Shown piece by piece: positions 1,926-33,584 of a DNA stretch of 35,232 nucleotides. The notes under the pieces are model-generated. The model ran no database searches. It was not told where the DNA came from and saw only the letters and a program-made list of their open reading frames with translations. The DNA comes from a virus (taxonomy: Duplodnaviria > Heunggongvirae > Uroviricota > Caudoviricetes). Made by a program: the position numbers and the translations under genes. The stretch lies in IMG/VR virus record IMGVR_UViG_2541047821_000009. One strand, 5' to 3'. The stretch's first letter is position 1. The number at the start of each line of letters is the position of its first letter.

Positions 1926-2422
1926 CAGTGATGACGCTCAATCTCGTTGAAAAACAGCCAGCAACTATGCGCCGGATAATTGGTAAGCATCTTGCCGTCC
2001 CTCGCTGGCAGGATACATGTGATTATTATAATCAGATGATGGAGCGCGAACGGCTAACGGTTTGCTTTCATGCACAGTTAAAACAGCGTCACGCAACGAT
2101 GCGTTTTGAAGAAATGAACGACGTCGAACGTGAACGACTGGTTTGTGCAATTGATGAATTGCGTGGGGCATTCTCAAAACGCCGTCAGGTTGGCGCAAGT
2201 GAGTATGCATATATTAGTTTTTTAACAGTCAGTCAGCGCCGTACTTTATTTATGCACGCACGACTGACAGAAAAAGAATTTAACCAGCCATACTGGCGAA
2301 TTAATGAGGAATCATGTTACTGGCGTGATGCTTTATTCCGTGCATTACGTGAATTATTCAGTCTGTTTGAGTATGCACCGACAATTCTGACGTCGGTAAA
2401 ACCAGAGCAATATCTGCATTAA
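1916..2422 (+). CDS. B: Replication protein B (helicase-loader-like)
   Basis: 168 aa versus about 166 aa for P2 B; position after cox/orf78. Confidence 0.7.
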   Translation: MEMTVMTLNLVEKQPATMRRIIGKHLAVPRWQDTCDYYNQMMERERLTVCFHAQLKQRHATMRFEEMNDVERERLVCAIDELRGAFSKRRQVGASEYAYISFLTVSQRRTLFMHARLTEKEFNQPYWRINEESCYWRDALFRALRELFSLFEYAPTILTSVKPEQYLH

Positions 2423-2485
2423 GTAATTAACCAGAGTTTTTAACGCACTTAATTGTGCGGGGCTTCTTTTTGCCTGGAGAAAGTC

Positions 2486-2710
2486 ATGCATACAGTTTCT
2501 GAAAATCAGTGCGGTAAATACGCATTACTGCTGCAACAGGCCAGAACCGAAGCACAGGCCGACGCAGCGACGCGCTTTTCTTCTCATCTTGACGTCATGA
2601 TTCGCCACATCACAAAGGCGGAGTTATCCCGCGTGGAGATAGTCGAGCTGCTCAGTCAGGAGTCGGAAAAATTTCACAACATCGGATTGTCTCGCGGGGA
2701 GGTGCTTTGA
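2486..2710 (+). CDS. Hypothetical early protein (orf80 position)
   Basis: ORF with GGAGAAAG ribosome-binding site before ATG at 2486; stop overlaps the next start. Confidence 0.5.
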
Positions 2711-3012
2711 TGTCCTGTTCTCGTTCAGTTGTTTTACTGAACAATGCCTTAAAAATCGCCGTTATGAAAAATGGCGATTTGTCTCTTATTCAACTTGGTC
2801 TTGATAAAGAAAAACGCGAAATAACTGAATCTGCTATCGCGATTTATCAGAGTGAATTAAACCTCCTGTCTGATGTGGTCAATTTACTTGTTAAACGCGC
2901 TGTATTTCACAAGCAAATTTCCTCCGTGGATGAACTGACAAAATTAACGACAGAAATCGCCAGCTATTGCGCTGATGAATTTAAGAAACTGAACGACAAA
3001 AGGAGCTGGTAA
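2707..3012 (+). CDS. Hypothetical early protein (orf81 position)
   Basis: 101-aa ORF, translationally coupled on both sides (ATGA overlaps). Confidence 0.5.
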
Positions 3013-3236
3013 TGCCGGACAACGTGGATTTTATTCAGGAACAACAGGCTGAATTACTGGAGCGCCAGATTAACGCGGCAAGGGTAAAGCATTGCGGTGC
3101 TTCTGCGCTGGTTTGCGAAGAGTGTGACGCGCCAATACCTGCTGCCCGTCGTGCGGCTTATCCGTCAGCCACGCGTTGTGTTTCCTGTCAGTCAGTCTTT
3201 GAAGCAAAAAACAAACATTACCGGAGAACGGCATGA
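3012..3236 (+). CDS. TraR/DksA-family C4 zinc-finger protein
   Basis: 74 aa; 'CEECDAPIP...CVSCQ' CxxC-N17-CxxC motif; AGGAG ribosome-binding site. Confidence 0.65.
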   Translation: MPDNVDFIQEQQAELLERQINAARVKHCGASALVCEECDAPIPAARRAAYPSATRCVSCQSVFEAKNKHYRRTA

Positions 3237-3511
3237 GTATTCGTATTGAAATTGGCGAACGTTATGTCGTTACCAGTGACAGCTTTCAGTTTATTCTCCA
3301 CGAGAAAAAGAGAGCGGAAAGCGGTAAAAACGCCGGTCAGGAGTGGCTGGCGGTGGTTGGTTATTACCCGAAATTAAGCCAGCTCGTTTCCGGTCTGATG
3401 CATCACGATATTCTGACCGGAAGCGCAAAGTCTTTTGCTGATTTAAACACGCAGGTTGAGCAGCTCAGCAAGCGTTGTTCAGAGGCGTTCTCCAGAGGAG
3501 CGTCTGAATGA
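3233..3511 (+). CDS. Hypothetical early protein (orf83 position)
   Basis: 92-aa ORF, coupled to neighbours. Confidence 0.5.
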   Translation: MSIRIEIGERYVVTSDSFQFILHEKKRAESGKNAGQEWLAVVGYYPKLSQLVSGLMHHDILTGSAKSFADLNTQVEQLSKRCSEAFSRGASE

Positions 3512-4515
3512 TTACTGATGCTCGTTGCCATACTGAAAATACCATCAATGTTATTTTTGTTTCAGGTGGAAAGGACAGCCTTGCTCAGTGGCTTGTCGCT
3601 ATTGAAGAAAATGTACCCATATTGCCGGTTTTTGCTGATACGGGACATGAACATCCACAGACAATGAAATATCTGGATTATCTGGAAAAACGGCTTGGCC
3701 CAATTAAAAGAGTCAGAGCTGATTTTTCCTGCCGGATTGAATCAAAGCGCAAGTTTATCCAGACCAAATGGCCTGATTTGTTGGTTAACGATTGTGGAAT
3801 GTCGGAAGAAGAAGCGCACCAGCGCATCAGTTGTGCGCTGGAAATTCTCAAACCAACGGGTATCCCGTTTCTTGATTTGTGTCTGTGGAAGGGGCGTTTC
3901 CCATCAACCAAAGCCAGATTTTGCACATTTGAACTGAAACATGAACCCGTGCGTTCTCAGGTAATCCTGCCTTTACTCAATGAATTTGAGGAAGTGATTA
4001 GCTGGCAGGGAGTGCGTGCTCAGGAATCGCCATCACGCGCAGCTTTACCTGTCTGGGAAGAGGATGCAGACAACACACCCGGATTGCATGTATATCGCCC
4101 GATTTTGCACTGGAAGCATGAAGATGTATTTGCAATAGCCAGAAGACATGACATTAAGCCAAATCCGTTATATCAGCAGGGGTGTGGCCGTGTTGGTTGT
4201 ATGCCATGTATTCATGTCCGTAAATCTGAACTGGCAGAAATTTTTCGCCGGTGGCCGGAGGAAATAAAGCGGGTTGCTGAATGGGAACGACTGGTTGCGT
4301 CGTGCTCCCGTCGGGGAAATTCCACTTTTTTCCCATCCACACATGATCCGCTACGCGCAGAACGTCGTATTGAGGTTGTAACAGTCGAGGCATACGGAAT
4401 TGAAACCTACCATGACTGGACAATGACAACGCGTGGGGGTACTCAGTTTGATTTACTGGCTTCGGCGAATGATAAAGCCGTTTGCAGTAGTGTCTATGCC
4501 GGTGTATGTGAATGA
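3508..4515 (+). CDS. PAPS-reductase / DndC-like PP-loop ATP pyrophosphatase family protein
   Basis: 335 aa; N-terminal PP-loop 'VIFVSGGKDS' (SGGxDS); C-terminal Cys cluster 'GCGRVGCMPC'; coupled to A (ATGA overlap). Confidence 0.7.
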   Translation: MITDARCHTENTINVIFVSGGKDSLAQWLVAIEENVPILPVFADTGHEHPQTMKYLDYLEKRLGPIKRVRADFSCRIESKRKFIQTKWPDLLVNDCGMSEEEAHQRISCALEILKPTGIPFLDLCLWKGRFPSTKARFCTFELKHEPVRSQVILPLLNEFEEVISWQGVRAQESPSRAALPVWEEDADNTPGLHVYRPILHWKHEDVFAIARRHDIKPNPLYQQGCGRVGCMPCIHVRKSELAEIFRRWPEEIKRVAEWERLVASCSRRGNSTFFPSTHDPLRAERRIEVVTVEAYGIETYHDWTMTTRGGTQFDLLASANDKAVCSSVYAGVCE

Positions 4516-6803
4516 GTCATTCTTTCCAGGAGCAATACACCTGCGTACCTCCGTCAGCATTTGCCGCAGGCACCGGTAAGACGTTTACCGGTGCTTATGC
4601 ATGGAACGCGCCGCGCGAGGCTGTCGGGCGCGAAAGACCTCTTACACGTGACGAGATGCGTCAGGTGCAAGGTGTTTTATCCACGATTAACCGCCTGCCT
4701 TATTTTTTGCGCTCGCTGTTTACTTCACGCTACGACTACATCCGGCGCACTAAAAGCCCGGTGCACGGGTTTTATTTCCTCACATGCACTTTTCAGCGTC
4801 GTTTATGGCCGCGCATTGAGCGCGTGAATCAGCGCCATGAAATGAACACCGACGCGTCGTTGCTGTTTCTGACAGAGCGTGACCATTATGCGCGTCTGCC
4901 GGGGATGAATGACAAGGAGCTGAAAAAGTTTGCCGCCCGTATTTCATCGCAGCTTTTCATGATGTATGAGGAACTCTGCGATGCATGGGTTGATGCCCAT
5001 GGCGAAAAAGAATCGCTGTTTACGGATGAGGCGCAGGCGCATCTGTATGGTCATGTTGCTGGCGCTGCACGTGCTTTCAATATTTCCCCGCTCTACTGGA
5101 AAAAATACCGTAAAGGACAGATGACCACGAGGCAGGCATATTCTGCCATTGCCCGTCTGTTTAATGATGAGTGGTGGACTCATCAGCTTAAAGGACAGCG
5201 TATGCGCTGGCATGAAGCGTTACTGATAGCTGTCGGGGAGGTTAATAAAGACCGCTCACCTTATGCCAGTAAACACGCCATTCGTGATGTGCGTGCACGC
5301 CGCCAGGCAAATCTGGAATTTCTTAAATCGTGTGACCTTGAAAACAGGGAAACCGGCGAGCGCATCGACCTTATCAGTAAGGTGATGGGCAGTATTTCTA
5401 ATCCAGAAATTCGCCGGATGGAGCTGATGAACACCATCGCCGGTATTGAGCGTTACGCCGCCGCAGAGGGTGATGTGGGGATGTTTATCACGTTGACCGC
5501 ACCGTCAAAGTATCACCCGACACGTCAGGTCGGAAAAGGCGAAAGTAAAACCGTTCAGCTTAATCACGGCTGGAACGATGAGGCATTTAATCCAAAGGAT
5601 GCGCAGCGTTATCTCTGCCGTATCTGGAGCCTGATGCGCACGGCATTCAAGGATAATGATTTACAGGCCTACGGTTTGCGTGTCGTCGAGCCACACCATG
5701 ACGGAACGCCACACTGGCATATGATGCTTTTTTGTAATCCACGCCAGCGTAACCAGATTATCGAAATCATGCGTCGCTATGCGCTCAAAGAGGATGGCGA
5801 CGAAAGAGGAGCCGCGCGAAACCGTTTTCAGGCAAAACATCTTAACCGGGGCGGTGCTGCGGGGTATATCGCGAAATACATCTCAAAAAATATCGACGGC
5901 TATGCACTGGATGGGCAGCTCGATAACGATACCGGCAGACCGCTGAAAGATACTGCCGCGGCTGTTACCGCATGGGCGTCAACGTGGCGCATTCCGCAAT
6001 TTAAAACGGTTGGCCTGCCGACAATGGGGGCTTACCGTGAACTACGCAAATTGCCTCGCGGCGTCAGCATTGCTGATGAGTTTGACGAGCGCGTCGAGGC
6101 TGCACGCGCCGCCGCAGACAGTGGTGATTTTGCGTTGTATATCAGCGCGCAGGGTGGGGCAAATGTCCCGCGCGATTGTCAGACTGTCAGGGTCGCCCGT
6201 AGCCCGTCGGATGACGTTAACGAGTACGAGGAAGAAGTCGAGAGAGTGGTCGGCATTTACGCGCCGCATCTCGGCGCGCGTCATATTCATATCACCAGAA
6301 CGACGGACTGGCGCATTGTACCGAAAGTTCCGGTCGTTGAGCCTTTGACTTTAAAAAGCGGCATCGCCGCGCCTCGGAGTCCTGTCAATAACTGTGGAAA
6401 GCTCACTGGTGGTGATACTTCGTTACCGGCTCCCACACCTTCTGAGCACGCCGCAGCAGTGCTTAATCTGGTTGATGACGGTGTTATTGAATGGAATGAA
6501 CCGGAGGTCGTGAGGGCGCTCAGGGGCGCATTAAAACACGACCTGCGAACGCCAAACCGTCAGCAAAGAAACGGAAGCCCGTTAAAACCACATGAAATTG
6601 CACCATCGGCCAGACTGACCCGGTCGGAAAGAATGCAAATTACCCGTATCCGCGTTGACCTTGCTCAGAACGGTATCAGACCGCAGCGATGGGAGCTTGA
6701 GGCGCTGGCGCGTGGCGCGACCGTAAATTATGACGGGAAAAAATTCACGTATCCGGTCGCTGATGAGTGGCCGGGATTCTCAACAGTAATGGAGTGGAAA
6801 TGA
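4512..6803 (+). CDS. A: Rolling-circle replication initiator endonuclease (gpA)
   Basis: 763 aa (P2 A is about 761 aa); HUH-type metal motif 'HHDGTPHWHMMLF' and catalytic Tyr region 'YIAKYISKNIDGY'. Confidence 0.85.
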   Translation: MSHSFQEQYTCVPPSAFAAGTGKTFTGAYAWNAPREAVGRERPLTRDEMRQVQGVLSTINRLPYFLRSLFTSRYDYIRRTKSPVHGFYFLTCTFQRRLWPRIERVNQRHEMNTDASLLFLTERDHYARLPGMNDKELKKFAARISSQLFMMYEELCDAWVDAHGEKESLFTDEAQAHLYGHVAGAARAFNISPLYWKKYRKGQMTTRQAYSAIARLFNDEWWTHQLKGQRMRWHEALLIAVGEVNKDRSPYASKHAIRDVRARRQANLEFLKSCDLENRETGERIDLISKVMGSISNPEIRRMELMNTIAGIERYAAAEGDVGMFITLTAPSKYHPTRQVGKGESKTVQLNHGWNDEAFNPKDAQRYLCRIWSLMRTAFKDNDLQAYGLRVVEPHHDGTPHWHMMLFCNPRQRNQIIEIMRRYALKEDGDERGAARNRFQAKHLNRGGAAGYIAKYISKNIDGYALDGQLDNDTGRPLKDTAAAVTAWASTWRIPQFKTVGLPTMGAYRELRKLPRGVSIADEFDERVEAARAAADSGDFALYISAQGGANVPRDCQTVRVARSPSDDVNEYEEEVERVVGIYAPHLGARHIHITRTTDWRIVPKVPVVEPLTLKSGIAAPRSPVNNCGKLTGGDTSLPAPTPSEHAAAVLNLVDDGVIEWNEPEVVRALRGALKHDLRTPNRQQRNGSPLKPHEIAPSARLTRSERMQITRIRVDLAQNGIRPQRWELEALARGATVNYDGKKFTYPVADEWPGFSTVMEWK

Positions 6804-7255
6804 TGGCAAAAATTCACGAGGTAAAGCTGCACGCTAAATATTTTGACCTTGTGCTGGAAGGAAAGAAACGCGCAGAGTTTCGGAAAAATGACCGTAATTA
6901 TGAGCGCGGGGACACGTTGATTTTGCATGAATGGGTACAGGGTGTGTATACGGGGCGAAAGGTTGAAGCCCGGATAACAGATGTTACTGACCTGTCAGAC
7001 TGGCTGGAAGATTATGTCTTGCTAAGTATTGAGCTGCTTAATACAGGCGCATATGAGACTGTGAACTGGAAAGAACTTAGTGAGCGTGGTCTGGTATTCA
7101 GAATTAATCATGAAATTATGCATCAGCTCGGCCTTGCTGTTATGTATGAACCAGAGACGGGGATGTCTGGCGGGGCAATGGTTGCCACGGATGGAGCATG
7201 GAACTATTCAGATGAACAGATGGAGCGTGCACAGCAAAACGGGTGGCTTGGATAA
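6800..7255 (+). CDS. ASCH (PUA-like) domain protein
   Basis: 'EGKKRAEFR' matches the ASCH G-K-x-x-E-x-R signature; ATG overlaps the A stop; first gene of the accessory locus. Confidence 0.6.
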   Translation: MMAKIHEVKLHAKYFDLVLEGKKRAEFRKNDRNYERGDTLILHEWVQGVYTGRKVEARITDVTDLSDWLEDYVLLSIELLNTGAYETVNWKELSERGLVFRINHEIMHQLGLAVMYEPETGMSGGAMVATDGAWNYSDEQMERAQQNGWLG

Positions 7256-7467
7256 TGCACAGAATACCAGGCGAGATACCGCACCATAAAACTAAAAATA
7301 TCAAGCTGATGGCTATTGTTCACCGTCTACAGCAGATTATGGTCAACGAAAATTTGACGCCTGATGAGCTAGTCGGGTGTGCCGAAATAGTCCGGGATAA
7401 TTACGGGCGACTTAACTATATCGGTATCGGTCAGTCCAGAGTTGCGCCACCACCACGTAGACGATAG
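7255..7467 (+). CDS. Hypothetical small protein
   Basis: ATG overlaps the ASCH stop (TAATG); 70 aa; no recognisable motif. Confidence 0.35.
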   Translation: MHRIPGEIPHHKTKNIKLMAIVHRLQQIMVNENLTPDELVGCAEIVRDNYGRLNYIGIGQSRVAPPPRRR

Positions 7468-7593
7468 AGAACGCCGCCAGTCGTGAAACTTGTTTTCAGG
7501 GCTGGCGGGGTTGAACAACGAGCGAAGCGAGGCGTTAGTTCAATCGATGATCATAAGCTTATGAGTTAAGCCTCGAGATTTTGTAGAAAGGGT

Positions 7594-7601
7594 TGTATAC
7601 T
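7594..7601 (+). promoter_or_regulatory. Candidate extended -10 element (TGTATACT) upstream of the methyltransferase
   Basis: TG-N-TATACT read directly; GGAG ribosome-binding site at 7617-7620 and ATG at 7626. Confidence 0.3.
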
Positions 7602-7625
7602 GGACATCGTATGGATCTGGAGTGA

Positions 7626-8651
7626 ATGATGATTGTAAAGGTGATAGACCTTTTTTGTGGTGCTGGCGGATTAACTCATGGTTTGCAACTCGCAGGTCTT
7701 GATGTCGTTGCTGGTATTGACCTTGAGGGGGAATGTCGATTTCCCTATGAAAAAAACAATAAATCAAAGTTTATTGAGAAAGATATCGCTAAAGTAACCA
7801 AAGAGGAATTACTGAAGCTATATGGTGATGCGTCTATAAAAGTATTGGCTGGATGTGCACCTTGCCAACCTTTTTCAAAATATACTCAAGGAAAAGATAA
7901 AGCGGAAGATAAAAAATGGCCTCTTCTTTATGAGTTCGAGCGTTTAATTCGCGAGGTATCTCCAGAAATTGTAACAATGGAGAACGTGCCTGATGTAACT
8001 AAACATAAAGTTTATAATGACTTTTATTGTTCGTTGTTAGAACTGGGATATTATGTTTGGGCATCAAAGGTTGATTGTGTCGAATATGGAATTCCACAGA
8101 ACCGTTCTCGTCATGTATTGTTAGCCTCAAAGTTGGGGGAGATTGAGTTAGTAAAACGTAATGATGTTATTTTGAAAACTGTTAGGGATGCAATAGGTGG
8201 CCTTCCACCATTAGAAGATGGTCAAACAGATCCAAATGATATATTGCATAGAGCCAGTAAATTAAACTCGATTAATAAAAAAAGAATTATACACTCTATT
8301 CCAGGTGGTACATGGAAGGACTGGCCGGAAGAACTTATTGCTGCTTGTCATATGAAGTCTAGCGGTAAAGGGTATGCTAGCGTATATGGGAGGATGTCTT
8401 GGGATAAGCCAAGCCCGACAATTACAACTCTTTGTTATGGTTTTGGGAATGGTCGTTTTGGCCACCCAGAACAGAACAGAGCTATTTCTCTTAGAGAAGC
8501 GGCTTTGTTGCAAACATTTCCTATGGATTATGTTTTTGTTGAAGAACAAGAAAAGTTTGTTATAAGAAGTATTGGAAAAATGATAGGTAATGCTGTGCCA
8601 GTTGAGTTAGGAAAAGTCATTGGGCAATCAATAAAAAATCATTTGAAATAA
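7626..8651 (+). CDS. DNA (cytosine-5)-methyltransferase
   Basis: Motif I 'LFCGAGG', motif IV 'GCAPCQPFS', motif VI 'TMENVPD', motif VIII 'QNRSRHVLLA', C-terminal 'GNAVPVELG'; AT-rich codon usage unlike the phage backbone. Confidence 0.85.
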   Translation: MMIVKVIDLFCGAGGLTHGLQLAGLDVVAGIDLEGECRFPYEKNNKSKFIEKDIAKVTKEELLKLYGDASIKVLAGCAPCQPFSKYTQGKDKAEDKKWPLLYEFERLIREVSPEIVTMENVPDVTKHKVYNDFYCSLLELGYYVWASKVDCVEYGIPQNRSRHVLLASKLGEIELVKRNDVILKTVRDAIGGLPPLEDGQTDPNDILHRASKLNSINKKRIIHSIPGGTWKDWPEELIAACHMKSSGKGYASVYGRMSWDKPSPTITTLCYGFGNGRFGHPEQNRAISLREAALLQTFPMDYVFVEEQEKFVIRSIGKMIGNAVPVELGKVIGQSIKNHLK

Positions 8652-8655
8652 TAAA

Positions 8656-8680
8656 ATGGCCTGCTTTGCAGGCCTTGTGA
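8656..8680. terminator. Bidirectional intrinsic terminator between convergent genes
   Basis: Hairpin GGCCTGC-ttt-GCAGGCC (8658-8674) flanked by an A-run upstream and a T-rich tract downstream. Confidence 0.55.
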
Positions 8681-9361
8681 TTATTTCTCTAAGTATTCAT
8701 TATTATTTATATAATGTTCTATATTATTCGCGATTGCATCAAGATAGGCTATTACTTCTAATGAAATATTCTCTAAATCCTGATATGAAACATTTTTCCC
8801 AATCTCAGCAAATGATACATTTCCATGAGATAAATCATTGCGATGTTGTTTAACAGTGGCTAACTTTTCACCATGTTTAGTGTGAGTGTAATCAGAATGG
8901 GTTGAAAATCCATATATTTTCGATTTTTCTTTTATTTCCTCTCTATCAATATTGCCTGAAAATATTTTCTTTTTGTTGAATGTACCATAAGAAATACCAC
9001 AGGATATGCCTTTAGTAAGTCCGTTGATTAAATTATCGATGTTAACAGATTCATTTTTTAATCTTTTTAAAATTTCTGATTTTAGGTTTTTTTTAAGTTT
9101 GTCAAACTCTATGTTTCTATCATAAATAGTCTCATGTATAAGGCAGATAGCCTCTCTCATTGTTGATTCAATAAGGTTGTATAATAGTATATATACTGCA
9201 CCCTTTAGAGTTTTTCGTGATTGAGATGTAATGGTGAACTTATGTTCTTTATTATCGGATGATATTAATTCCGCACCAGCATGCTCAATAAATTTTAAAA
9301 GATCTAAATAGGCCAAGATTTCTCCTGACCTTTCGTCAAAATCCTCACGAAAACGATCCAT
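8681..9361 (-). CDS. HEPN-like protein (putative RNase effector), partner of the DUF262 protein
   Basis: 226 aa; C-terminal 'QHRNDLSHG' fits the HEPN R-x(4-6)-H motif; its start is 1 nt from the stop of the upstream DUF262 gene. Confidence 0.5.
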   Translation of the reverse strand: MDRFREDFDERSGEILAYLDLLKFIEHAGAELISSDNKEHKFTITSQSRKTLKGAVYILLYNLIESTMREAICLIHETIYDRNIEFDKLKKNLKSEILKRLKNESVNIDNLINGLTKGISCGISYGTFNKKKIFSGNIDREEIKEKSKIYGFSTHSDYTHTKHGEKLATVKQHRNDLSHGNVSFAEIGKNVSYQDLENISLEVIAYLDAIANNIEHYINNNEYLEK

Positions 9362-9362
9362 G

Positions 9363-10505
9363 TTAATCCTCTAATAGTTTGTCTCGCACATATTCAATTC
9401 GTTCAATTACCTTCACGCGACTATTTGCTCCGTCGGAGGTGGTTAATTGTTTGAATTCTTCTGAGCTTAGCCAATCTAAGTTTTTGGGGACAAGGTTAGG
9501 CTCTAGACGTAATGCGAGTGCAGCACCAACAGCGAGAGATTCAAATCTAACTCGAGGTGTAGATTTTGCAGTGATAGTTTTCTTAAAGCCTGCTGGGAAA
9601 TGGTTTTCAACGAAAGACAGAACATTCGAAAACTCTTCTTTCATTGAGTTTTGTTCAGCTTCATCTATATTACTCTTTTCCTTCATGTAATCATTCAGAA
9701 AATCACGCACGGAATGATCAAATTTCTTATATTTATCTAAGTAGGCAAAGAATCTCAATGTAAATTCTAACCGTTCATCTCGTTTTTCTTTAGCCTCAGA
9801 TAAAGGTGCTAACTCCTTAAATTTAGATATTGTCGAGCATGGCTTAATAACCTGCGTATATAAATTTGTTGAGCCAAGTTCTGAACCTTTACGAACTTCC
9901 ATATCTTTCAATATGTCACTACCAGAGTTAATTCGCTCAAAAAGATCCCTGCGGGTTTCTTCATTGCATTTAGAACTCAACTCTATAACACGCACAGGAA
10001 TTCTCATGAAACGGCGTTGGCGTGATAATGGTAAATCTTGGAATCTGAAACCATTAAGAGAACTTAAAGATTTCAGATCTTGTAAAACTAATTCATTGTG
10101 GATAAACGCATGTATGGTTCTAACACGCTGTGAGCCATCAACAATTTCAATCCGTCCATCTAAATCGGGATCTTCTGAAAAGACATCAGCTGTAAATATA
10201 TATGGTATAGGGAAGCCCAAAATTAAAGACTCTATTAATCTTGATTGTCTCTTTTCATTCCAAACAAAGTCCCTTTGATAATCAGGAACAAAGAGTTCGT
10301 TGGTATCATCCTCTAACCCGTTATGATACTTATTAACTAATAACTCAACAGTAAATTCTTTGGTCTCAAAGTCAACATCCTTTTGCTCTGCGCGAATTTG
10401 CTCTTCAGCCTCTTGTTTTATAACTTCTAGCTGAGCTAGGAGTTCTGCCCTTTTTTTGGCATTATCTTCATGTTCTAGTTGAGATTTTAACCCAATAATA
10501 TCCAT
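9363..10505 (-). CDS. DUF262 (ParB/Srx-like, GmrS-type N-terminal domain) protein
   Basis: 380 aa; 'VPDYQRDFVW' and 'IVDGSQRVRTI' match the DUF262 signatures; no HNH/DUF1524 nuclease domain seen in the C-terminal half. Confidence 0.7.
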   Translation of the reverse strand: MDIIGLKSQLEHEDNAKKRAELLAQLEVIKQEAEEQIRAEQKDVDFETKEFTVELLVNKYHNGLEDDTNELFVPDYQRDFVWNEKRQSRLIESLILGFPIPYIFTADVFSEDPDLDGRIEIVDGSQRVRTIHAFIHNELVLQDLKSLSSLNGFRFQDLPLSRQRRFMRIPVRVIELSSKCNEETRRDLFERINSGSDILKDMEVRKGSELGSTNLYTQVIKPCSTISKFKELAPLSEAKEKRDERLEFTLRFFAYLDKYKKFDHSVRDFLNDYMKEKSNIDEAEQNSMKEEFSNVLSFVENHFPAGFKKTITAKSTPRVRFESLAVGAALALRLEPNLVPKNLDWLSSEEFKQLTTSDGANSRVKVIERIEYVRDKLLED

Positions 10506-10690
10506 ATCCAGATCCCTTAATGATTGTTATAAATGAAAACAGATAGCATACCGCATAGATCAGGAAAAATGCCATCGCATGCATGAATTTGCATGAGAGA
10601 AAGATTACCATTTGGGATTAGCTTTGCCAGTGCTGATGGGTTTTGGATTTTAATCATGTACTGCATCAAAACCGCCTCATGAAGCGGGCG

Positions 10691-10709
10691 GGCGAGGCGG
10701 GGAAAGCAC
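10691..10709. other. cos: cos site (19-nt cohesive-end sequence GGCGAGGCGGGGAAAGCAC)
   Basis: Exact 19-mer read at 10691-10709; matches the P2 cohesive-end sequence as recalled from memory; position immediately upstream of leftward Q is the P2 position. Confidence 0.55.
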
Positions 10710-10878
10710 TGCGCGCTGGCGGTGGTGCTGATTTTATTTTTTCAGCGTCTGAGCGCGTCGTGATGGCGTTTAGATTGTGCGCCGGGGCGTTGGTGTGTCT
10801 GCGGGGTGTTTTGTGCGGTGGTGAGCGTGTGAGGGCGTGATGACGGGGTGTAAAAAAGCCGCCCACAGGCGGCGATGT

Positions 10879-11913
10879 TCAGTCGTTGTCAGTGTCCAGT
10901 GAGTAGTTTTTAAAGCGGATGACTTCCTGACCGAGCCAGCCGTTTATTTCCCGAATCCTGTCCTGTAGCGGGATAAGCTCATTGCGGACAAAGACCTTTG
11001 CCACTTTCTCAATATCACCCAGCGACCCGACGTTCTCCGGCTTGCCGCCCATCAACTGAAAGGGGATGCGGTGCGCGTCCAGCAGGTCTGCGGCACTGGC
11101 TTTTTTGATATTAAAAAAATCGTCCTTCGTTGCCACTTCACTGAGCGGGATAATTTTAATGCCGTCAGCTTTCCCCTGCGGGGCATAGAGAAACAGATTT
11201 TTAAAGTTGTTGCGGCCTTTCGACTTCACCATGTTTTCGCGAAGCATTTCGATATCGTTGCGATCCTGCACGGCATCGGTGACGTACATGATGTATCCGG
11301 CATGTGCGCCATTTTCGTAATATTTGCGGCGGAACAGCGTGGCCGACTCATTCAGCCAGGCAGAATTAAGGGCGCTGAGATATTCCGGCAGGCCGTACAG
11401 CTCCTGATTAATATCCGGCTCCAGCAGGTGAAACACGGAGCCGGGCGCGAAAGGTGTCGGCTCGTTAAAGGACGGCACCCACCAGTAAACATCCTCTTCC
11501 ACACCACGGCGGGTATATTTTGCCGGTGAGGTTTCCAGCCTGATAACTTTACCGGTGGTGCTGTAACGCTTTTCCAGAAACGCATTACCGAACACCAGAA
11601 AATCCAGCACAAAGCGGCTGAAATCCTGCTGGGAAAGCCACGGGTGCGGAATAAACGTTGAAGCCAGAATATTACGTTTGACGTAAATCGGTGAGCTGTG
11701 ATGTACGGCAGCACGCAGGCTTTTTGCCAGACCGGTAAAGCTGACCGGTGGCTCATACCATCTGCCGTTACTGATGCACTCGACGTAATCCAGAATGTCA
11801 CGGCGGTCGAGTACCGGCACCGGCTCACCAAAGGTGAATGCCTCCATTTTCGGGGCCCTGGCGGTCATTGTTTTCACCGCTGGCTGCGGTGTTTTCCCTT
11901 TTTTCTTGCTCAT
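10879..11913 (-). CDS. Q: Portal protein (gpQ)
   Basis: 344 aa, same as P2 Q; next to cos and the terminase gene. Confidence 0.9.
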   Translation of the reverse strand: MSKKKGKTPQPAVKTMTARAPKMEAFTFGEPVPVLDRRDILDYVECISNGRWYEPPVSFTGLAKSLRAAVHHSSPIYVKRNILASTFIPHPWLSQQDFSRFVLDFLVFGNAFLEKRYSTTGKVIRLETSPAKYTRRGVEEDVYWWVPSFNEPTPFAPGSVFHLLEPDINQELYGLPEYLSALNSAWLNESATLFRRKYYENGAHAGYIMYVTDAVQDRNDIEMLRENMVKSKGRNNFKNLFLYAPQGKADGIKIIPLSEVATKDDFFNIKKASAADLLDAHRIPFQLMGGKPENVGSLGDIEKVAKVFVRNELIPLQDRIREINGWLGQEVIRFKNYSLDTDND

Positions 11914-13685
11914 CAGTAAAACTCCAGAATGGTGGATGTCAGCGGGGTGCTGATACCGGCGGTGAGTGGCTCATTTAACAGGGCGTGCATGGTCGCCCAG
12001 GCGAGGTCGGCGTGGCTGGCTTCCTCGCTGCGGCTGGCCTCATAGGTGGCGCTGCGTCCGCTGCTGGTCATGGTCTTGCGGATAGCCATAAACGAGCTGG
12101 TGATGTCGGTGGCGCTGACGTCATATTCCAGACAGCCACGGCGGATAACGTCTTTTGCCTTGAGCACCATTGCGGTTTTCATTTCCGGCGTGTAGCGGAT
12201 ATCGCGCGCGGCAGGATAGAACGAGCGCACGAGCTGGAACACGCCGACACCGAGGCCGGTGGCATCAATACCGATGTATTCGACGTTGTATTTTTCGGTG
12301 AGTTTGCGGATGGATTCAGCCTGGGTGGCAAAGTCCATGCCTTTCCACTGGTGACGCTCAAGTATTCTGAATTTGCCACCGGCCACCACCGGCGGTGCCA
12401 GTACCACGCATCCGGCGCTGTCGCCACGGTGTGACGGGTCGTAACCAATCCATACCGGGCGGGAGCCGAACGGATTGGCGGCAAACGGCGCATAGTCTTC
12501 CCATTCTTCCAGCGTGTCGACCATGCAGCGTTGCAGCTCCTCGAACGGGAACACCGACGCCTTGTCGTCAACAAATTCACACATGAACAGGTTTTTAAAA
12601 TCGTCGGCGCTGTTTTCACGTTTGAGCTGCTCAATGTCGAACAGCGTGCAGCCACCTTTCAGGGCGTCCTCAATGGTGACAATCTGCCGCCACTGGCCGT
12701 CCGCACAGAGAAGACCTCCGGCAAGGGCGTTATGACTGACGTCGATTTCCACGCGTTCGGCGGCGCTGGCGCGTCCCCGGTTGAACAGTTCACCCGACCA
12801 GAACGGGTAGGCGTCGTGCGCCAGCGTGGACGGGGTGGAGAAATAGGTCGAGCGCAGGTGACTCTGTGAGGCCATACCTGATGCCACCTTACGCAGTACC
12901 TGAAAATTCGGGATCCAGAAAATCTCGTCGACGTACAGGTCGCCGTTATGGCTCTGTGCGGTGTTGGAGTTGGTGCCGAGAAAAATCAGTTTTGCGCCGT
13001 TATTGCCCAGGACAATCGGGTCACCGGTCAGGTCAACGTCAACCAGCCGGGCAAAGGCGATGATGTATTCACGGAACACATACGCCTGCGTTTTACTGGC
13101 CGACAGAAAAATCTGGTTATGGCCGGTTTTCAGGGCGCGCAGCAGCGCCTCGCGGGAAAAATAAAACGTTGCGCCAATCTGGCGGGATTTCAGGATATCG
13201 CGGATGCGGTGCTCAAGCCCGGCGCGATACCAGTGCAACTGATAGTCGAAAGACTGCTCAAAGAAAATCTGCTCCAGCTTTTCGATGGCCTCGTCACTGA
13301 AAAAATTCTTTTTCGGTTTGCGGCGTTCGCCTTTGTTGCGGTTAGCGACGTTCGGATTAAGGTCTGCCTCGTTGCCGGTCTGGCTGTAGCGGTTGACCCG
13401 TGCCAGTCGTTCAATCTGGCGTCCGAGCAGGTCAATTTCCTTGAAGTCACCGCCGGTTTTCTGCGGTTTGATGATGAGCTGGGTCAGCCGCGCTTCCAGA
13501 CTCATTTCGACACGGCTGATGGGGGCAACGCTGTCCCAGCCGTCGCGCTGTTTCCAGCTCTGCACCGTCGGGCGTTTCATCTGCAACATGGCGGCAATCT
13601 GCGGCACGGAAAACCCCTGCCAGTACAGCAGCGCCGCCTGACGACGCGGGTCGTGTAAAAGAGTGGTGTCTGTGGTGATGGTCAT
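11913..13685 (-). CDS. P: Terminase large subunit (gpP)
   Basis: Start at internal Met (MTITTDTT...) gives 590 aa as in P2 P; N-terminal HTH-like region. Confidence 0.85.
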   Translation of the reverse strand: MTITTDTTLLHDPRRQAALLYWQGFSVPQIAAMLQMKRPTVQSWKQRDGWDSVAPISRVEMSLEARLTQLIIKPQKTGGDFKEIDLLGRQIERLARVNRYSQTGNEADLNPNVANRNKGERRKPKKNFFSDEAIEKLEQIFFEQSFDYQLHWYRAGLEHRIRDILKSRQIGATFYFSREALLRALKTGHNQIFLSASKTQAYVFREYIIAFARLVDVDLTGDPIVLGNNGAKLIFLGTNSNTAQSHNGDLYVDEIFWIPNFQVLRKVASGMASQSHLRSTYFSTPSTLAHDAYPFWSGELFNRGRASAAERVEIDVSHNALAGGLLCADGQWRQIVTIEDALKGGCTLFDIEQLKRENSADDFKNLFMCEFVDDKASVFPFEELQRCMVDTLEEWEDYAPFAANPFGSRPVWIGYDPSHRGDSAGCVVLAPPVVAGGKFRILERHQWKGMDFATQAESIRKLTEKYNVEYIGIDATGLGVGVFQLVRSFYPAARDIRYTPEMKTAMVLKAKDVIRRGCLEYDVSATDITSSFMAIRKTMTSSGRSATYEASRSEEASHADLAWATMHALLNEPLTAGISTPLTSTILEFY

Positions 13686-13858
13686 GAATACCTCGCCGTG
13701 ATGAATACACGGCAAGGCTACTGAGTCGCGCCCCGCGATTCGCTAAGGTGCTGTTGTGTCAGTGATAAGCCATCCGGGACTGATGGCGGAGGATGCGCAT
13801 CGTCGGGAAACTGATGCCGACATGTGACTCCTCTAATCACTATTCAGGACTCCTGACA
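13686..13858. promoter_or_regulatory. Divergent late-promoter region between P (leftward) and O (rightward)
   Basis: Only non-coding gap between the divergent P and O operons; by analogy with P2 it should hold Ogr-dependent late promoters; I could not confidently identify the TGT-N12-ACA activator site by eye. Confidence 0.3.
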
Positions 13859-25308: not shown

Positions 25309-25836
25309 ATGCAGCATTTAAAAAATATTACGGCGGGTAATCCAAAAACGGTTGAACAATATCAATTGACAAAAGACTTTGATGTTGTCTGGTTTTTTTC
25401 AGAAGATGGTAAGAACTGGTACGAAGAACAAAAGTATTTTGCTGATGACACGCTAAAAATAGCGTACGACAAAGATAATATCATCCGCTATGTGGAAAAG
25501 GATGTGACAGCTATCAGACCGGATGGATTAAGTGTTGTTGAAGTGGCGGATATTACTGCTAACCGACGGGCGGACATTTCAGGGAACTGGATGTTTAAGG
25601 ACGGCAAAGTGATTAAACGCATTTATACGGCAGAGGAATTGCTGCAGCAGGCAGAAAACCGGAAAGCCAGACTTCTTGCAGATGCTGAATCCGTGATTTT
25701 GCCGCTGGAGCGCGCGGTCAGACTGAACATGGCAACAGATGAGGAGCGTAGCCGACTGGATGCATGGGAGCGTTACAGCGTTCTGGTCAGTCGTGTGGAT
25801 CCTGCAAATCCTGAATGGCCGGAAATGCCGCAATAA
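25309..25836 (+). CDS. G: Tail fibre assembly chaperone (gpG)
   Basis: 175 aa as in P2 G; immediately after H. Confidence 0.75.
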
Positions 25837-26057: not shown

Positions 26058-26651
26058 ATGTTTACTAAGCGACGATTAAAAAATATTAACTGGGAGGCAA
26101 GTTCAGTGATTCTTGCTATGGTTCTCTTTGTTGGAAATATATTTTATACAAATCATCGTGATGATATAACTATGGAGGCTGAGAGGGACAGTATCAGAAC
26201 AATGTTTGCATATGAAATCGCTAATAACCATCGCGCTCTCACTTTTCTTGATAAAACGAGATATATTGGCTTTGACGAAAATTCGGAGCATTTTGTTGGC
26301 GAGCCTTTTGCCATTAATGTCAAATCATTAGGGGGGCCTCGCTTACAGATTGCATTAAACCAGACTGATAAAGTGTTTAAATCCTACTTCAGCGAATTAA
26401 GTAAGCTTGATAAAGAGGATGTTACTCTTCTTATGGACTATTACCATGAGCAAAGCATCCTGCTGGAGCGTGTAAAATCTACGTTACAGAAGATGAAAAG
26501 TGGTAATGATATTAAAGTTGATATTGATGGTTACTTATTAGAAGAACACTTCATGAATGAGCTTAATCTTTCTAATATTTTGCTTAAACGCTATAGCCAT
26601 TTGTTGTCACAACACGCCAAAGAACATAAAACAAAAGATTTACATAATTGA
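26058..26651 (+). CDS. Membrane-anchored hypothetical protein at the Z/fun-equivalent locus
   Basis: 197 aa; AAGGTG ribosome-binding site; N-terminal transmembrane helix 'SSVILAMVLFVGNIFY'; strongly AT-rich; no recognisable domain. Confidence 0.6.
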   Translation: MFTKRRLKNINWEASSVILAMVLFVGNIFYTNHRDDITMEAERDSIRTMFAYEIANNHRALTFLDKTRYIGFDENSEHFVGEPFAINVKSLGGPRLQIALNQTDKVFKSYFSELSKLDKEDVTLLMDYYHEQSILLERVKSTLQKMKSGNDIKVDIDGYLLEEHFMNELNLSNILLKRYSHLLSQHAKEHKTKDLHN

Positions 26652-26980: not shown

Positions 26981-28171
26981 ATGAGTGACTATCATCATGG
27001 CGTGCAGGTGCTGGAGATTAACGACGGCACCCGCGTCATTTCCACCGTATCCACTGCCATTGTCGGCATGGTCTGCACGGCCAGCGATGCGGATGCGGAA
27101 ACCTTCCCCCTCAATAAACCTGTGCTGATTACCAATGCCCAGAGCGCAATTGCAAAGGCCGGTAAAAAAGGCACGCTGGCGGCATCGTTACAGGCCATCG
27201 CCGACCAGTCAAAACCGGTCACCGTTGTCGTGCGTGTGGAAGACGGCACCGGCGACGACGAAGAAACGAAACTCGCGCAGACCGTTTCCAATATCATCGG
27301 CACCACCGACGAAAACGGTCAGTACACCGGACTGAAAGCCCTGCTGGCGGCGGAGTCGGTAACCGGTGTTAAACCGCGTATTCTCGGCGTGCCGGGACTG
27401 GACACCAAAGAGGTGGCTGTTGCACTGGCATCAGTCTGTCAGAAGCTGCGCGCTTTCGGGTATATCAGCGCATGGGGCTGTAAAACCATTTCCGAGGTGA
27501 AAGCCTACCGTCAGAATTTCAGCCAGCGTGAGCTGATGGTCATCTGGCCGGATTTCCTCGCATGGGATACGGTCACCAGTACCACCGCCACCGCGTATGC
27601 CACCGCCCGTGCGCTGGGTCTGCGTGCTAAAATCGACCAGGTGCAGGGCTGGCATAAAACGCTGTCCAACGTCGGGGTGAACGGTGTTACCGGCATCAGC
27701 GCATCTGTATTCTGGGATTTGCAGGAGTCCGGCACCGATGCTGACCTGCTGAACGAGGCAGGCGTCACTACGCTGATTCGCCGCGACGGTTTCCGCTTCT
27801 GGGGTAACCGTACCTGCTCTGATGACCCGCTTTTCCTCTTTGAAAACTACACCCGCACCGCGCAGGTGCTGGCCGATACGATGGCTGAGGCGCACATGTG
27901 GGCGGTGGACAAGCCCATCACCGCAACGCTGATTCGCGACATCGTTGACGGCATCAATGCCAAATTTCGTGAGCTGAAAACAAACGGCTATATCGTGGAT
28001 GCGACCTGCTGGTTCAGCGAAGAATCCAACGATGCGGAAACCCTTAAGGCCGGAAAACTGTATATCGACTACGACTATACCCCGGTGCCTCCTCTTGAAA
28101 ACCTGACCCTGCGCCAGCGTATTACCGATAAATACCTGGCAAATCTGGTCACCTCGGTTAACAGCAATTAA
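26981..28171 (+). CDS. FI: Tail sheath protein (gpFI)
   Basis: 396 aa as in P2 FI; GGAG ribosome-binding site. Confidence 0.9.
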   Translation: MSDYHHGVQVLEINDGTRVISTVSTAIVGMVCTASDADAETFPLNKPVLITNAQSAIAKAGKKGTLAASLQAIADQSKPVTVVVRVEDGTGDDEETKLAQTVSNIIGTTDENGQYTGLKALLAAESVTGVKPRILGVPGLDTKEVAVALASVCQKLRAFGYISAWGCKTISEVKAYRQNFSQRELMVIWPDFLAWDTVTSTTATAYATARALGLRAKIDQVQGWHKTLSNVGVNGVTGISASVFWDLQESGTDADLLNEAGVTTLIRRDGFRFWGNRTCSDDPLFLFENYTRTAQVLADTMAEAHMWAVDKPITATLIRDIVDGINAKFRELKTNGYIVDATCWFSEESNDAETLKAGKLYIDYDYTPVPPLENLTLRQRITDKYLANLVTSVNSN

Positions 28172-33284: not shown

Positions 33285-33365
33285 TATGTTTTATTTATCT
33301 GTTTGTTTTATAAGGATAAATTAACTAAAATGGCACCATCAACAAAACCGGAAGAGGTGCTCGCG

Positions 33366-33584
33366 ATGTTTCATTGTCCTTTATGCCAGCATGCCGCACA
33401 TGCGCGTACAAGCCGCTATATCACTGACACGACAAAAGAGCGTTATCACCAGTGCCAGAACGTGAATTGCAGCGCCACGTTCATCACCTATGAGTCGGTA
33501 CAGCGATACATCGTGAAGCCGGGAGAAGTCCACGCCGTAAGGCCGCACCCGTTGCCGTCAGGGCAGCAAATTATGTGGATGTAA
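33366..33584 (+). CDS. ogr: Late-gene transcriptional activator Ogr (zinc finger)
   Basis: Internal Met 'MFHCPLCQHAAHARTSRYI...HQCQNVNCSATF' gives 72 aa with a C2C2 zinc-binding motif, as in P2 Ogr. Confidence 0.8.
   Translation: MFHCPLCQHAAHARTSRYITDTTKERYHQCQNVNCSATFITYESVQRYIVKPGEVHAVRPHPLPSGQQIMWM

Follow-up and report, generated by a model that had tools for sequence, protein, structure and literature searches.

The subject of this analysis is a cassette of three genes, encoding a DUF262 protein, a HEPN protein and a C5 cytosine DNA methyltransferase, that lies in IMG/VR virus record IMGVR_UViG_2541047821_000009. The record, referred to here in its full length of 35,232 nucleotides as the window, is a complete P2-like prophage, and the cassette sits in an AT-rich cargo island between the replication endonuclease gene gpA and the cos site and portal gene. 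We tentatively read the three genes, at a likelihood just short of even, as a mobile defence and addiction cassette in which the logic of restriction-modification is joined to an RNA-targeting effector. As judged from the related loci described below, the methyltransferase belongs to the cassette and the unit is one of three genes. The cassette is well delimited and probably functional in defence or addiction, and the anti-phage role put forward in the original prediction, which was made from the DNA letters alone, was judged plausible. The features identified in this region are as follows.

7626..8651, plus strand: C5 cytosine DNA methyltransferase, 341 amino acids, the cassette's predicted modification component
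8681..9361, minus strand: HEPN protein of the MAE_28990 family, 226 amino acids, a predicted metal-independent RNase effector
9363..10505, minus strand: DUF262 (ParB-like NTPase) protein, 380 amino acids, a predicted DNA sensor or switch
9359..9372, minus strand: translational-coupling junction from DUF262 to HEPN, with GAGGA, TAA, 1 nucleotide and ATG
8658..8674, called on both strands: bidirectional terminator hairpin GGCCTGC-TTT-GCAGGCC
7573..7601, plus strand: promoter-like site TCGAGA-17-TATACT followed by a GGAG Shine-Dalgarno sequence, 5′ of the methyltransferase, a weak call from a consensus scan
7556..10690: AT-rich cargo cassette, approximate extent, bounded on the left by the start of homology and on the right by the cos site

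The three proteins and their arrangement

The open reading frames of 380 and 226 amino acids, the gap of 1 nucleotide from stop to start and the signatures DYQRDFVW and DGSQR (in the first protein) and RNDLSHG (in the second) were all found where they had been placed by the original prediction. The DUF262 gene ends with TAA at 9365-9363, a single C follows at 9362, and the HEPN gene starts with ATG at 9361-9359, with the GAGGA Shine-Dalgarno sequence 5 nucleotides 5′ of this start.

The 380-amino-acid protein matches the Pfam GmrSD_N/DUF262 family at 9e-27, which is far beyond chance, and the three DUF262 motifs QRxxxW, DGxQR and FxxxN are all invariant in 27 homologs. Among the PADLOC models, NsnA of the Menshen system matches over the full length of the protein (3e-55), and PD-T4-2_A gives a weaker match (7e-35, 118.7 bits, positions 55-356 of 363). 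The C-terminal domain is helical and of the NsnA type. The closest matches in structure are to BrxU and SspE, and a search of PDB sequences with the DUF262 profile returned only a short N-terminal motif in BrxU-like chains. Neither the Pfam scan nor the structural model contains a DUF1524/HNH or other nuclease fold, which agrees with the earlier statement that the nuclease usually fused to DUF262 is missing here.

The HEPN-like nature of the 226-amino-acid protein, first suspected from its Rx4H motif, was borne out by profile search, in which HEPN_MAE_28990 (PF18737) matches at 1e-29 with 104.5 bits (cutoff 26.8) over positions 6-211 of 211; HEPN_RiboL-PSP also matches in Pfam at 1e-8, and the RefSeq label of the E. 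coli orthologs is 'MAE_28990/MAE_18760 family HEPN-like nuclease'. The protein has the all-alpha helical-bundle fold of HEPN and carries Rx4H (RNDLSHG) together with an upstream Ex3R motif. It may be noted that Rx4H and Ex3[KR] motifs define the catalytic HEPN domains, which are metal-independent RNases (PMC3710099). Residues R174, N175, L177, H179, G180 and E65 are invariant in 21 homologs with identity down to 32%, and R69 is found in 90% or more of these. The family comprises 1,744 clusters at 50% identity, all of them standalone proteins of about 210-260 amino acids. Against PADLOC with E up to 1 the protein gave nothing except a chance-level match to AbiEii (0.019); there was no usable match in NCBIfam, and a PDB sequence search with the HEPN profile gave chance-level matches only.

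The pair converges, as was stated earlier, on a cytosine-5 methyltransferase, which matches Pfam DNA_methylase (PF00145) at 1e-57 and TIGR00675 dcm at 8e-37. In 39 orthologs of this enzyme every residue of the motifs FxGxG, PCQ, ENV, QxRxR and GNAVP shows conservation of 95% or more. Conservation is highest in residues 221-300, which comprise the C-terminal portion of the target-recognition region and motif IX, and this implies that the orthologs would share a single conserved specificity. Comparison with solved relatives was also considered as a means of naming the target, and was dropped as the specificity is not assignable in this way: the match to M.HaeIII and M.HhaI is confined to the generic catalytic core, and the C-terminal part is DNMT1-like. 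The terminator hairpin separating the methyltransferase and HEPN stop codons has 7 pairs, 6 of them G-C, and a T-rich tail on each side. For promoters, the number of sites found by the scan of the region is no higher than in shuffled sequences.

Survey of related loci

By pattern scan, 475 relatives of the HEPN protein were found in 185,579 species-representative genomes, and 80 loci were fetched. DUF262 lies directly 5′ of HEPN on the same strand in all 80, with a distance of -7 to +7 nucleotides from DUF262 stop to HEPN start in nearly all of them, and the RNxxxHG pattern is present in 78. A methyltransferase ortholog, 53-58% identical, adjoins the pair in 38 of the 80 loci, and two further loci have methyltransferase fragments only. 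On dividing the 38 by orientation, the methyltransferase is convergent in 35 and co-directional or upstream in the remaining three (L041, L066 and L073); since these three keep it in another gene order, the linkage survives rearrangement. The same methyltransferase lineage is adjacent to the pair across Gammaproteobacteria, Cyanobacteria, Acidobacteria and Bacteroidales and in three unrelated phage types. In the original prediction the system was a two-gene operon and the methyltransferase a mere neighbour, a description that does not fit this frequency of linkage or the recurrence of the trio in several mobile elements.

We also built a neighbour-joining tree of DUF262 with 72 tips from the 80 loci. 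On this tree the presence of the methylase requires 3 changes; with shuffled labels the mean is 24, and no shuffle needs fewer than 16. Gain and loss of the methylase would therefore be rare, and the trio appears to be inherited and transferred as a unit. Two loci, L011 and L016, represent recent loss of the methylase nested within the methylase-linked clade.

Some other observations were made on the loci that lack the methylase. A recurrent upstream open reading frame of 870-900 amino acids, taken up as a candidate for another methylase in these loci, was rejected as it is aconitase B, ClpB or SecA. In many Nostocales (L021, L029, L031, L033, L036 and others) the methylase-less pair is fixed just downstream of aconitase B, and this fixed site suggests long vertical inheritance and not carriage by a mobile element. 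In seven methylase-less cyanobacterial loci, mostly of Microcoleus (L028, L044, L062, L063, L071, L079 and L080), DUF262 is truncated (at most about 265 amino acids) or missing; the count of Microcoleus loci with a truncated DUF262 gene is six or seven. DGxQR is lost in five of these seven loci, and the HEPN catalytic motif is kept in all except L044.

The trio in other mobile elements

The elements that carry the trio are listed here with identities to the proteins of the window.

E. coli P2 prophage CFSAN064036: methylase 94%, DUF262 93%, HEPN 94%; the trio is the sole cargo of the hotspot
Peduovirus P24B2: methylase 71-77%, DUF262 47%, HEPN 29%
Moraxella Mcat phages: methylase 59%, DUF262 43%, HEPN 31%
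Klebsiella pneumoniae lambdoid prophages: DUF262 85%
Vibrio jasicida, trio beside a resolvase: HEPN 42%

The methyltransferase orthologs keep the same convergent position in P24B2, the Mcat phages, the Klebsiella lambdoid prophages and Vibrio. HEPN evolves fastest of the three proteins. When the phages are compared, the methyltransferase has changed least; among the bacterial loci, its conservation is similar to that of DUF262. These comparisons show that the trio is transferred whole between mobile elements that are unrelated, and across phyla.

On the Klebsiella pneumoniae chromosomes (L085-L088) the trio lies in lambdoid prophages between replication genes and the NinG/RusA/antiterminator genes. 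It is very common there, the DUF262 protein being present in 487 blocks of the genome collection. One of these loci, L087, has intact DUF262 and methylase genes and a HEPN gene shortened to 160 amino acids. In P24B2 (L082, NC_049387) the methyltransferase ortholog at 2021-3041 is split into two frames at about residue 227 and is either frameshifted or mis-sequenced.

A related pair without a methylase was found in Klebsiella phage ST16-OXA48phi5.4 (L084, NC_049450), which is of the P2 family. Here an NsnA-like DUF262 protein of 407 amino acids is followed by a RiboL-PSP HEPN protein of 220 amino acids (2363-4266), the two genes sitting among the tail genes between the tail fibre and the tape measure. 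This Klebsiella peduovirus pair was considered as a case of PD-T4-2 and rejected, being another combination of NsnA-like DUF262 and RiboL-PSP HEPN; its HEPN partner has no match to PD-T4-2_B or any other PADLOC model. The HEPN partners in P24B2, the Mcat phages and L021 likewise have no PADLOC match.

Relation to known systems

The combination had been thought to lack a name, which does not hold. PD-T4-2, described by Vassallo 2022 from E. coli ECOR65, is listed as 'DUF262, HEPN' and protects against T4, as tested also by deletion in the native strain (PMC9519451), and an operon of MAE_28990 HEPN, ParB and DNA methylase was tabulated by Anantharaman et al. in 2013 (Table 1; PMC3710099). Also, DUF262 with HEPN was proposed by Makarova et al. 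2013 to be a module for cell death with ties to DNA modification (PMC3632139), and HEPN proteins embedded in restriction-modification loci have been proposed as linked RNase effectors (PMC3710099; PMC3632139). Both the DUF262 and HEPN combination and its association with a methylase are thus already known, and neither idea is new. Beyond the 2013 surveys and reviews, our literature search gave no characterised system of DUF262, HEPN and methyltransferase, and no defence that senses unmethylated DNA and has an RNase as effector; DUF262 is not mentioned by Rousset et al. 2022.

PD-T4-2 shares with the window locus a two-gene operon in E. coli accessory DNA, in which the gene for DUF262, lacking DUF1524, precedes one for a small HEPN protein from the RiboL-PSP/MAE_28990 group. 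Its gene order and the coupling of DUF262 to HEPN are present in the window, where the lineage is methylase-linked. PD-T4-2B falls in the same two Pfam HEPN families as the window protein, reaching PF18737 by HHpred only (96.9%; PMC9519451). On the other hand, the HEPN protein of the window has no match to PD-T4-2_B and is longer (226 against about 165 amino acids for PD-T4-2B), and the DUF262 protein scores higher on NsnA than on PD-T4-2_A. With the B subunit unmatched and the A subunit closer to NsnA, the locus is not PD-T4-2 by model. Of the two genes, therefore, only that for DUF262 matches named systems (NsnA and PD-T4-2_A), and that for HEPN matches no PADLOC model. In our assessment, in which kinship is read from hidden Markov model (HMM) scores, the cassette is a distant, methylase-linked relative of PD-T4-2 and not a new kind of system.

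The operon of Anantharaman et al. agrees with the window locus in gene family and in its neighbourhood of three genes, and the window locus is an instance of it. Their entry is a single line of a table, without boundaries, phylogeny, phage-hotspot context or experiment; new relative to it are the split between methylase-linked and methylase-less clades and the conservation of the target-recognition region. With Menshen (NsnABC) the locus shares a ParB-DUF262 protein that is NsnA-like over its full length, including the helical C-terminal domain (PMC12065111), but the hotspot contains neither the ABC ATPase NsnB nor the effector NsnC, a single HEPN protein being present instead, and so the locus is not Menshen. 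GmrSD, BrxU and SspE have the same N-terminal DUF262 NTPase domain with QRxxxW, DGxQR and FxxxN. They differ in carrying a fused DUF1524 HNH domain, whose absence means that the window locus is not GmrSD-like; its effector is a separate predicted HEPN RNase and it is methyltransferase-linked, whereas those proteins act alone or with ssp or BREX genes. PrrC-EcoprrI offers another parallel, as it also embeds an HEPN-type RNase with a DNA modification system and couples discrimination of DNA to suicide at the RNA level. The restriction-modification type is a different one there (a type Ic locus) and PrrC has its own ABC ATPase, whereas the window locus has no separate restriction endonuclease and would be regulated by the DUF262 NTPase.

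Proposed mechanism and alternative explanations

In the mechanism that we tentatively favour, the methyltransferase would mark host and prophage DNA at a fixed motif, and the DUF262/ParB-like NTPase, with its helical, putatively DNA-binding domain, would read the modification state of DNA. In GmrSD, BrxU and SspE, DUF262 serves as an NTPase that senses modification (PMC12065111; PMC10952713). An encounter with foreign DNA, or loss of the mark from the chromosome, would cause an NTP-dependent switch in DUF262, which would license a partner HEPN dimer to cut RNA (tRNA or mRNA), and this cutting would lead to translation arrest, aborted infection or death of cells losing the cassette. The restriction-modification reading is supported by the intact catalytic motifs, the pairing of DUF262 and HEPN in 80 of 80 loci, the methylase linkage in 38 of them and the mobility of the trio. 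Further support comes from the small number of changes in methylase presence on the tree, the conservation of the target-recognition part of the methyltransferase and the protection given by PD-T4-2 against T4. A more specific form of it, namely an epigenetically gated RNase immunity in which DUF262 reads whether DNA bears a specific 5-methylcytosine (m5C) mark set by the methyltransferase of the cassette and unmarked DNA activates HEPN, with no cleavage of DNA, and which doubles as a post-segregational killer stabilising the prophage, is possible, though we put it clearly below an even chance.

Several points weigh against a role of the methylase as protector from its own neighbours. PD-T4-2 differs from the window locus in having no methyltransferase, and it works without one. 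A full-length adjacent methyltransferase is missing in 42 of the 80 loci (one of these has a contig too short to judge and two keep a methylase fragment), and 34 of the 72 loci in the tree form one methylase-less cyanobacterial clade. The motifs are mostly intact in the methylase-less loci, whose neighbours are housekeeping genes such as those for aconitase B, ClpB, SecA and CobN. A decayed methylase also stands beside an intact DUF262-HEPN pair in L016, L011 and L077 and apparently in P24B2, where DUF262 and HEPN are of full length beside the split methyltransferase, a case that bears on the toxicity of the pair without methylation. Under a strict rule that unmethylated self is lethal, such decay would be expected only seldom, except where another methylase acts on the motif. 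The DUF262-HEPN pair can thus exist without a linked methylase. Also, functional dependence does not follow from the grouping of methylase-bearing loci on the tree, as neighbouring genes are co-inherited anyway, and it is only from the coupling of the genes and, by analogy, from ParB/HEPN fusions in other families that we infer a complex of the DUF262 and HEPN proteins.

Much of this would suit a self-contained pair of the PD-T4-2 type, in which DUF262 detects a phage cue unrelated to m5C, HEPN is the effector, and the methyltransferase is an independent co-traveller that could, for example, shield the DNA of the mobile element from host restriction. Protection by PD-T4-2 in the absence of any methylase, the large methylase-less clade with intact motifs, the Klebsiella peduovirus pair of DUF262 and RiboL-PSP HEPN, and the decayed methylases beside intact pairs in L016, L077 and P24B2 are all in its favour. 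What makes it unlikely in our view is that a single methyltransferase lineage, with its target-recognition region conserved, stays adjacent across taxa and phage types, even in L041, L066 and L073 and in the element where DUF262 and HEPN fall to 47% and 29% identity. Such constancy is not expected of a hitch-hiker.

A true restriction-modification system with a PrrC-like guard was considered next, in which DUF262 itself would cleave or nick DNA, and HEPN would stay silent until an anti-restriction factor of the phage disables DUF262. This accords with the term 'ParB nuclease' used by Anantharaman et al. and with the PrrC-EcoprrI analogy that they propose for HEPN genes in restriction-modification loci, and the PADLOC model 'REase_II' (372 positions) does match the DUF262 domain weakly, at 2.5e-5. 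Yet DUF262 is the NTPase and sensor in GmrSD, BrxU and SspE, where cleavage needs the DUF1524 HNH domain that is absent here, and with no nuclease fold in the structural model of the DUF262 protein we regard this explanation as quite improbable. Least probable, and very doubtful in our estimate, is a type IV-like sensor in which DUF262 would recognise foreign modified bases (hydroxymethylcytosine (hmC) or glucosyl-hmC) and trigger HEPN, the m5C methylase having another role or tuning the sensor as a cofactor, as phosphorothioate does for SspE; binding of modified DNA by DUF262 in GmrSD, BrxU and SspE, the selection of PD-T4-2 on T4, whose DNA carries glucosyl-hmC, and the tolerated loss of the methylase in some loci, which fits a cofactor better than a protective role, speak for it, but coupling a modification-dependent sensor to a self-modifying methylase would be risky.

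Prophage setting and limits of the cargo island

The positions of the prophage genes that frame the cassette are given below.

1-1011: integrase
4512..6803: replication endonuclease gpA
10691-10709: exact P2 cos site GGCGAGGCGGGGAAAGCAC, with 0 matches in 100 shuffles
10879..11913: portal gene
11913-13715: terminase gene
33303-33584: Ogr, followed by a host cation-efflux gene

The GC content of the island is 0.30-0.41 (0.30-0.37 over 8500-10500) as opposed to 0.50-0.60 in the flanks. This profile, together with gpA, the exact cos site and the portal, upholds the earlier assignment of the pair to foreign AT-rich cargo in the P2 old/tin hotspot. The left edge of the cassette was taken from megablast alignments to 8 E. 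coli genomes, which start at window position 7556 (query base 157), and it marks the onset of homology to E. coli prophages bearing the same cassette. Among 5,426 complete E. coli genomes, 8 have the cassette, with a nucleotide identity of about 89%. A scan of 6700-11000 with Rfam found no RNA family, and the repeat search gave short chance matches only.

Between gpA and the cassette there are two open reading frames on the plus strand, one for a DUF3850/ASCH and DUF7415 protein of 162 amino acids (6767-7255), which overlaps the end of gpA, and after it one of 74 amino acids (7243-7467) without a family match. The E. coli CFSAN064036 prophage, which has the same cassette, lacks both. Just upstream of gpA, in the early operon, lies a plus-strand gene (3508-4515) for a protein of 335 amino acids with a PAPS-reductase domain (Pfam, 5e-35), whose best PADLOC models are SspD (3e-21), BrxP and DndC, which are DNA phosphorothioation-type enzymes; it is unusual cargo for the early region of P2. 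A second AT-rich patch (GC content 0.37) holds a plus-strand open reading frame of 197 amino acids (26058-26651) without a Pfam or PADLOC match. It follows the gene for tail-fibre assembly (25309-25836) and precedes the next gene of the tail, which starts at 26981; this position corresponds to the second P2 defence hotspot of Vassallo et al.

Significance of the cassette

As the HEPN subunit matches no model, the current PADLOC models would miss this cassette, although it is frequent among Klebsiella prophages and occurs widely in cyanobacteria. PD-T4-2, Menshen and Dazbog share the question of how self is distinguished from foreign by nuclease-less DUF262 sensors. The cassette is native to E. 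coli, consists of only three genes and probably has its self mark encoded by the adjoining gene, which makes the question testable by the classical genetics of host-controlled modification. If the methylase does gate the HEPN RNase, the logic of restriction-modification would here be driving abortive infection rather than DNA cleavage, and the spread of the trio as one block through the hotspots of prophages would be explained as well.

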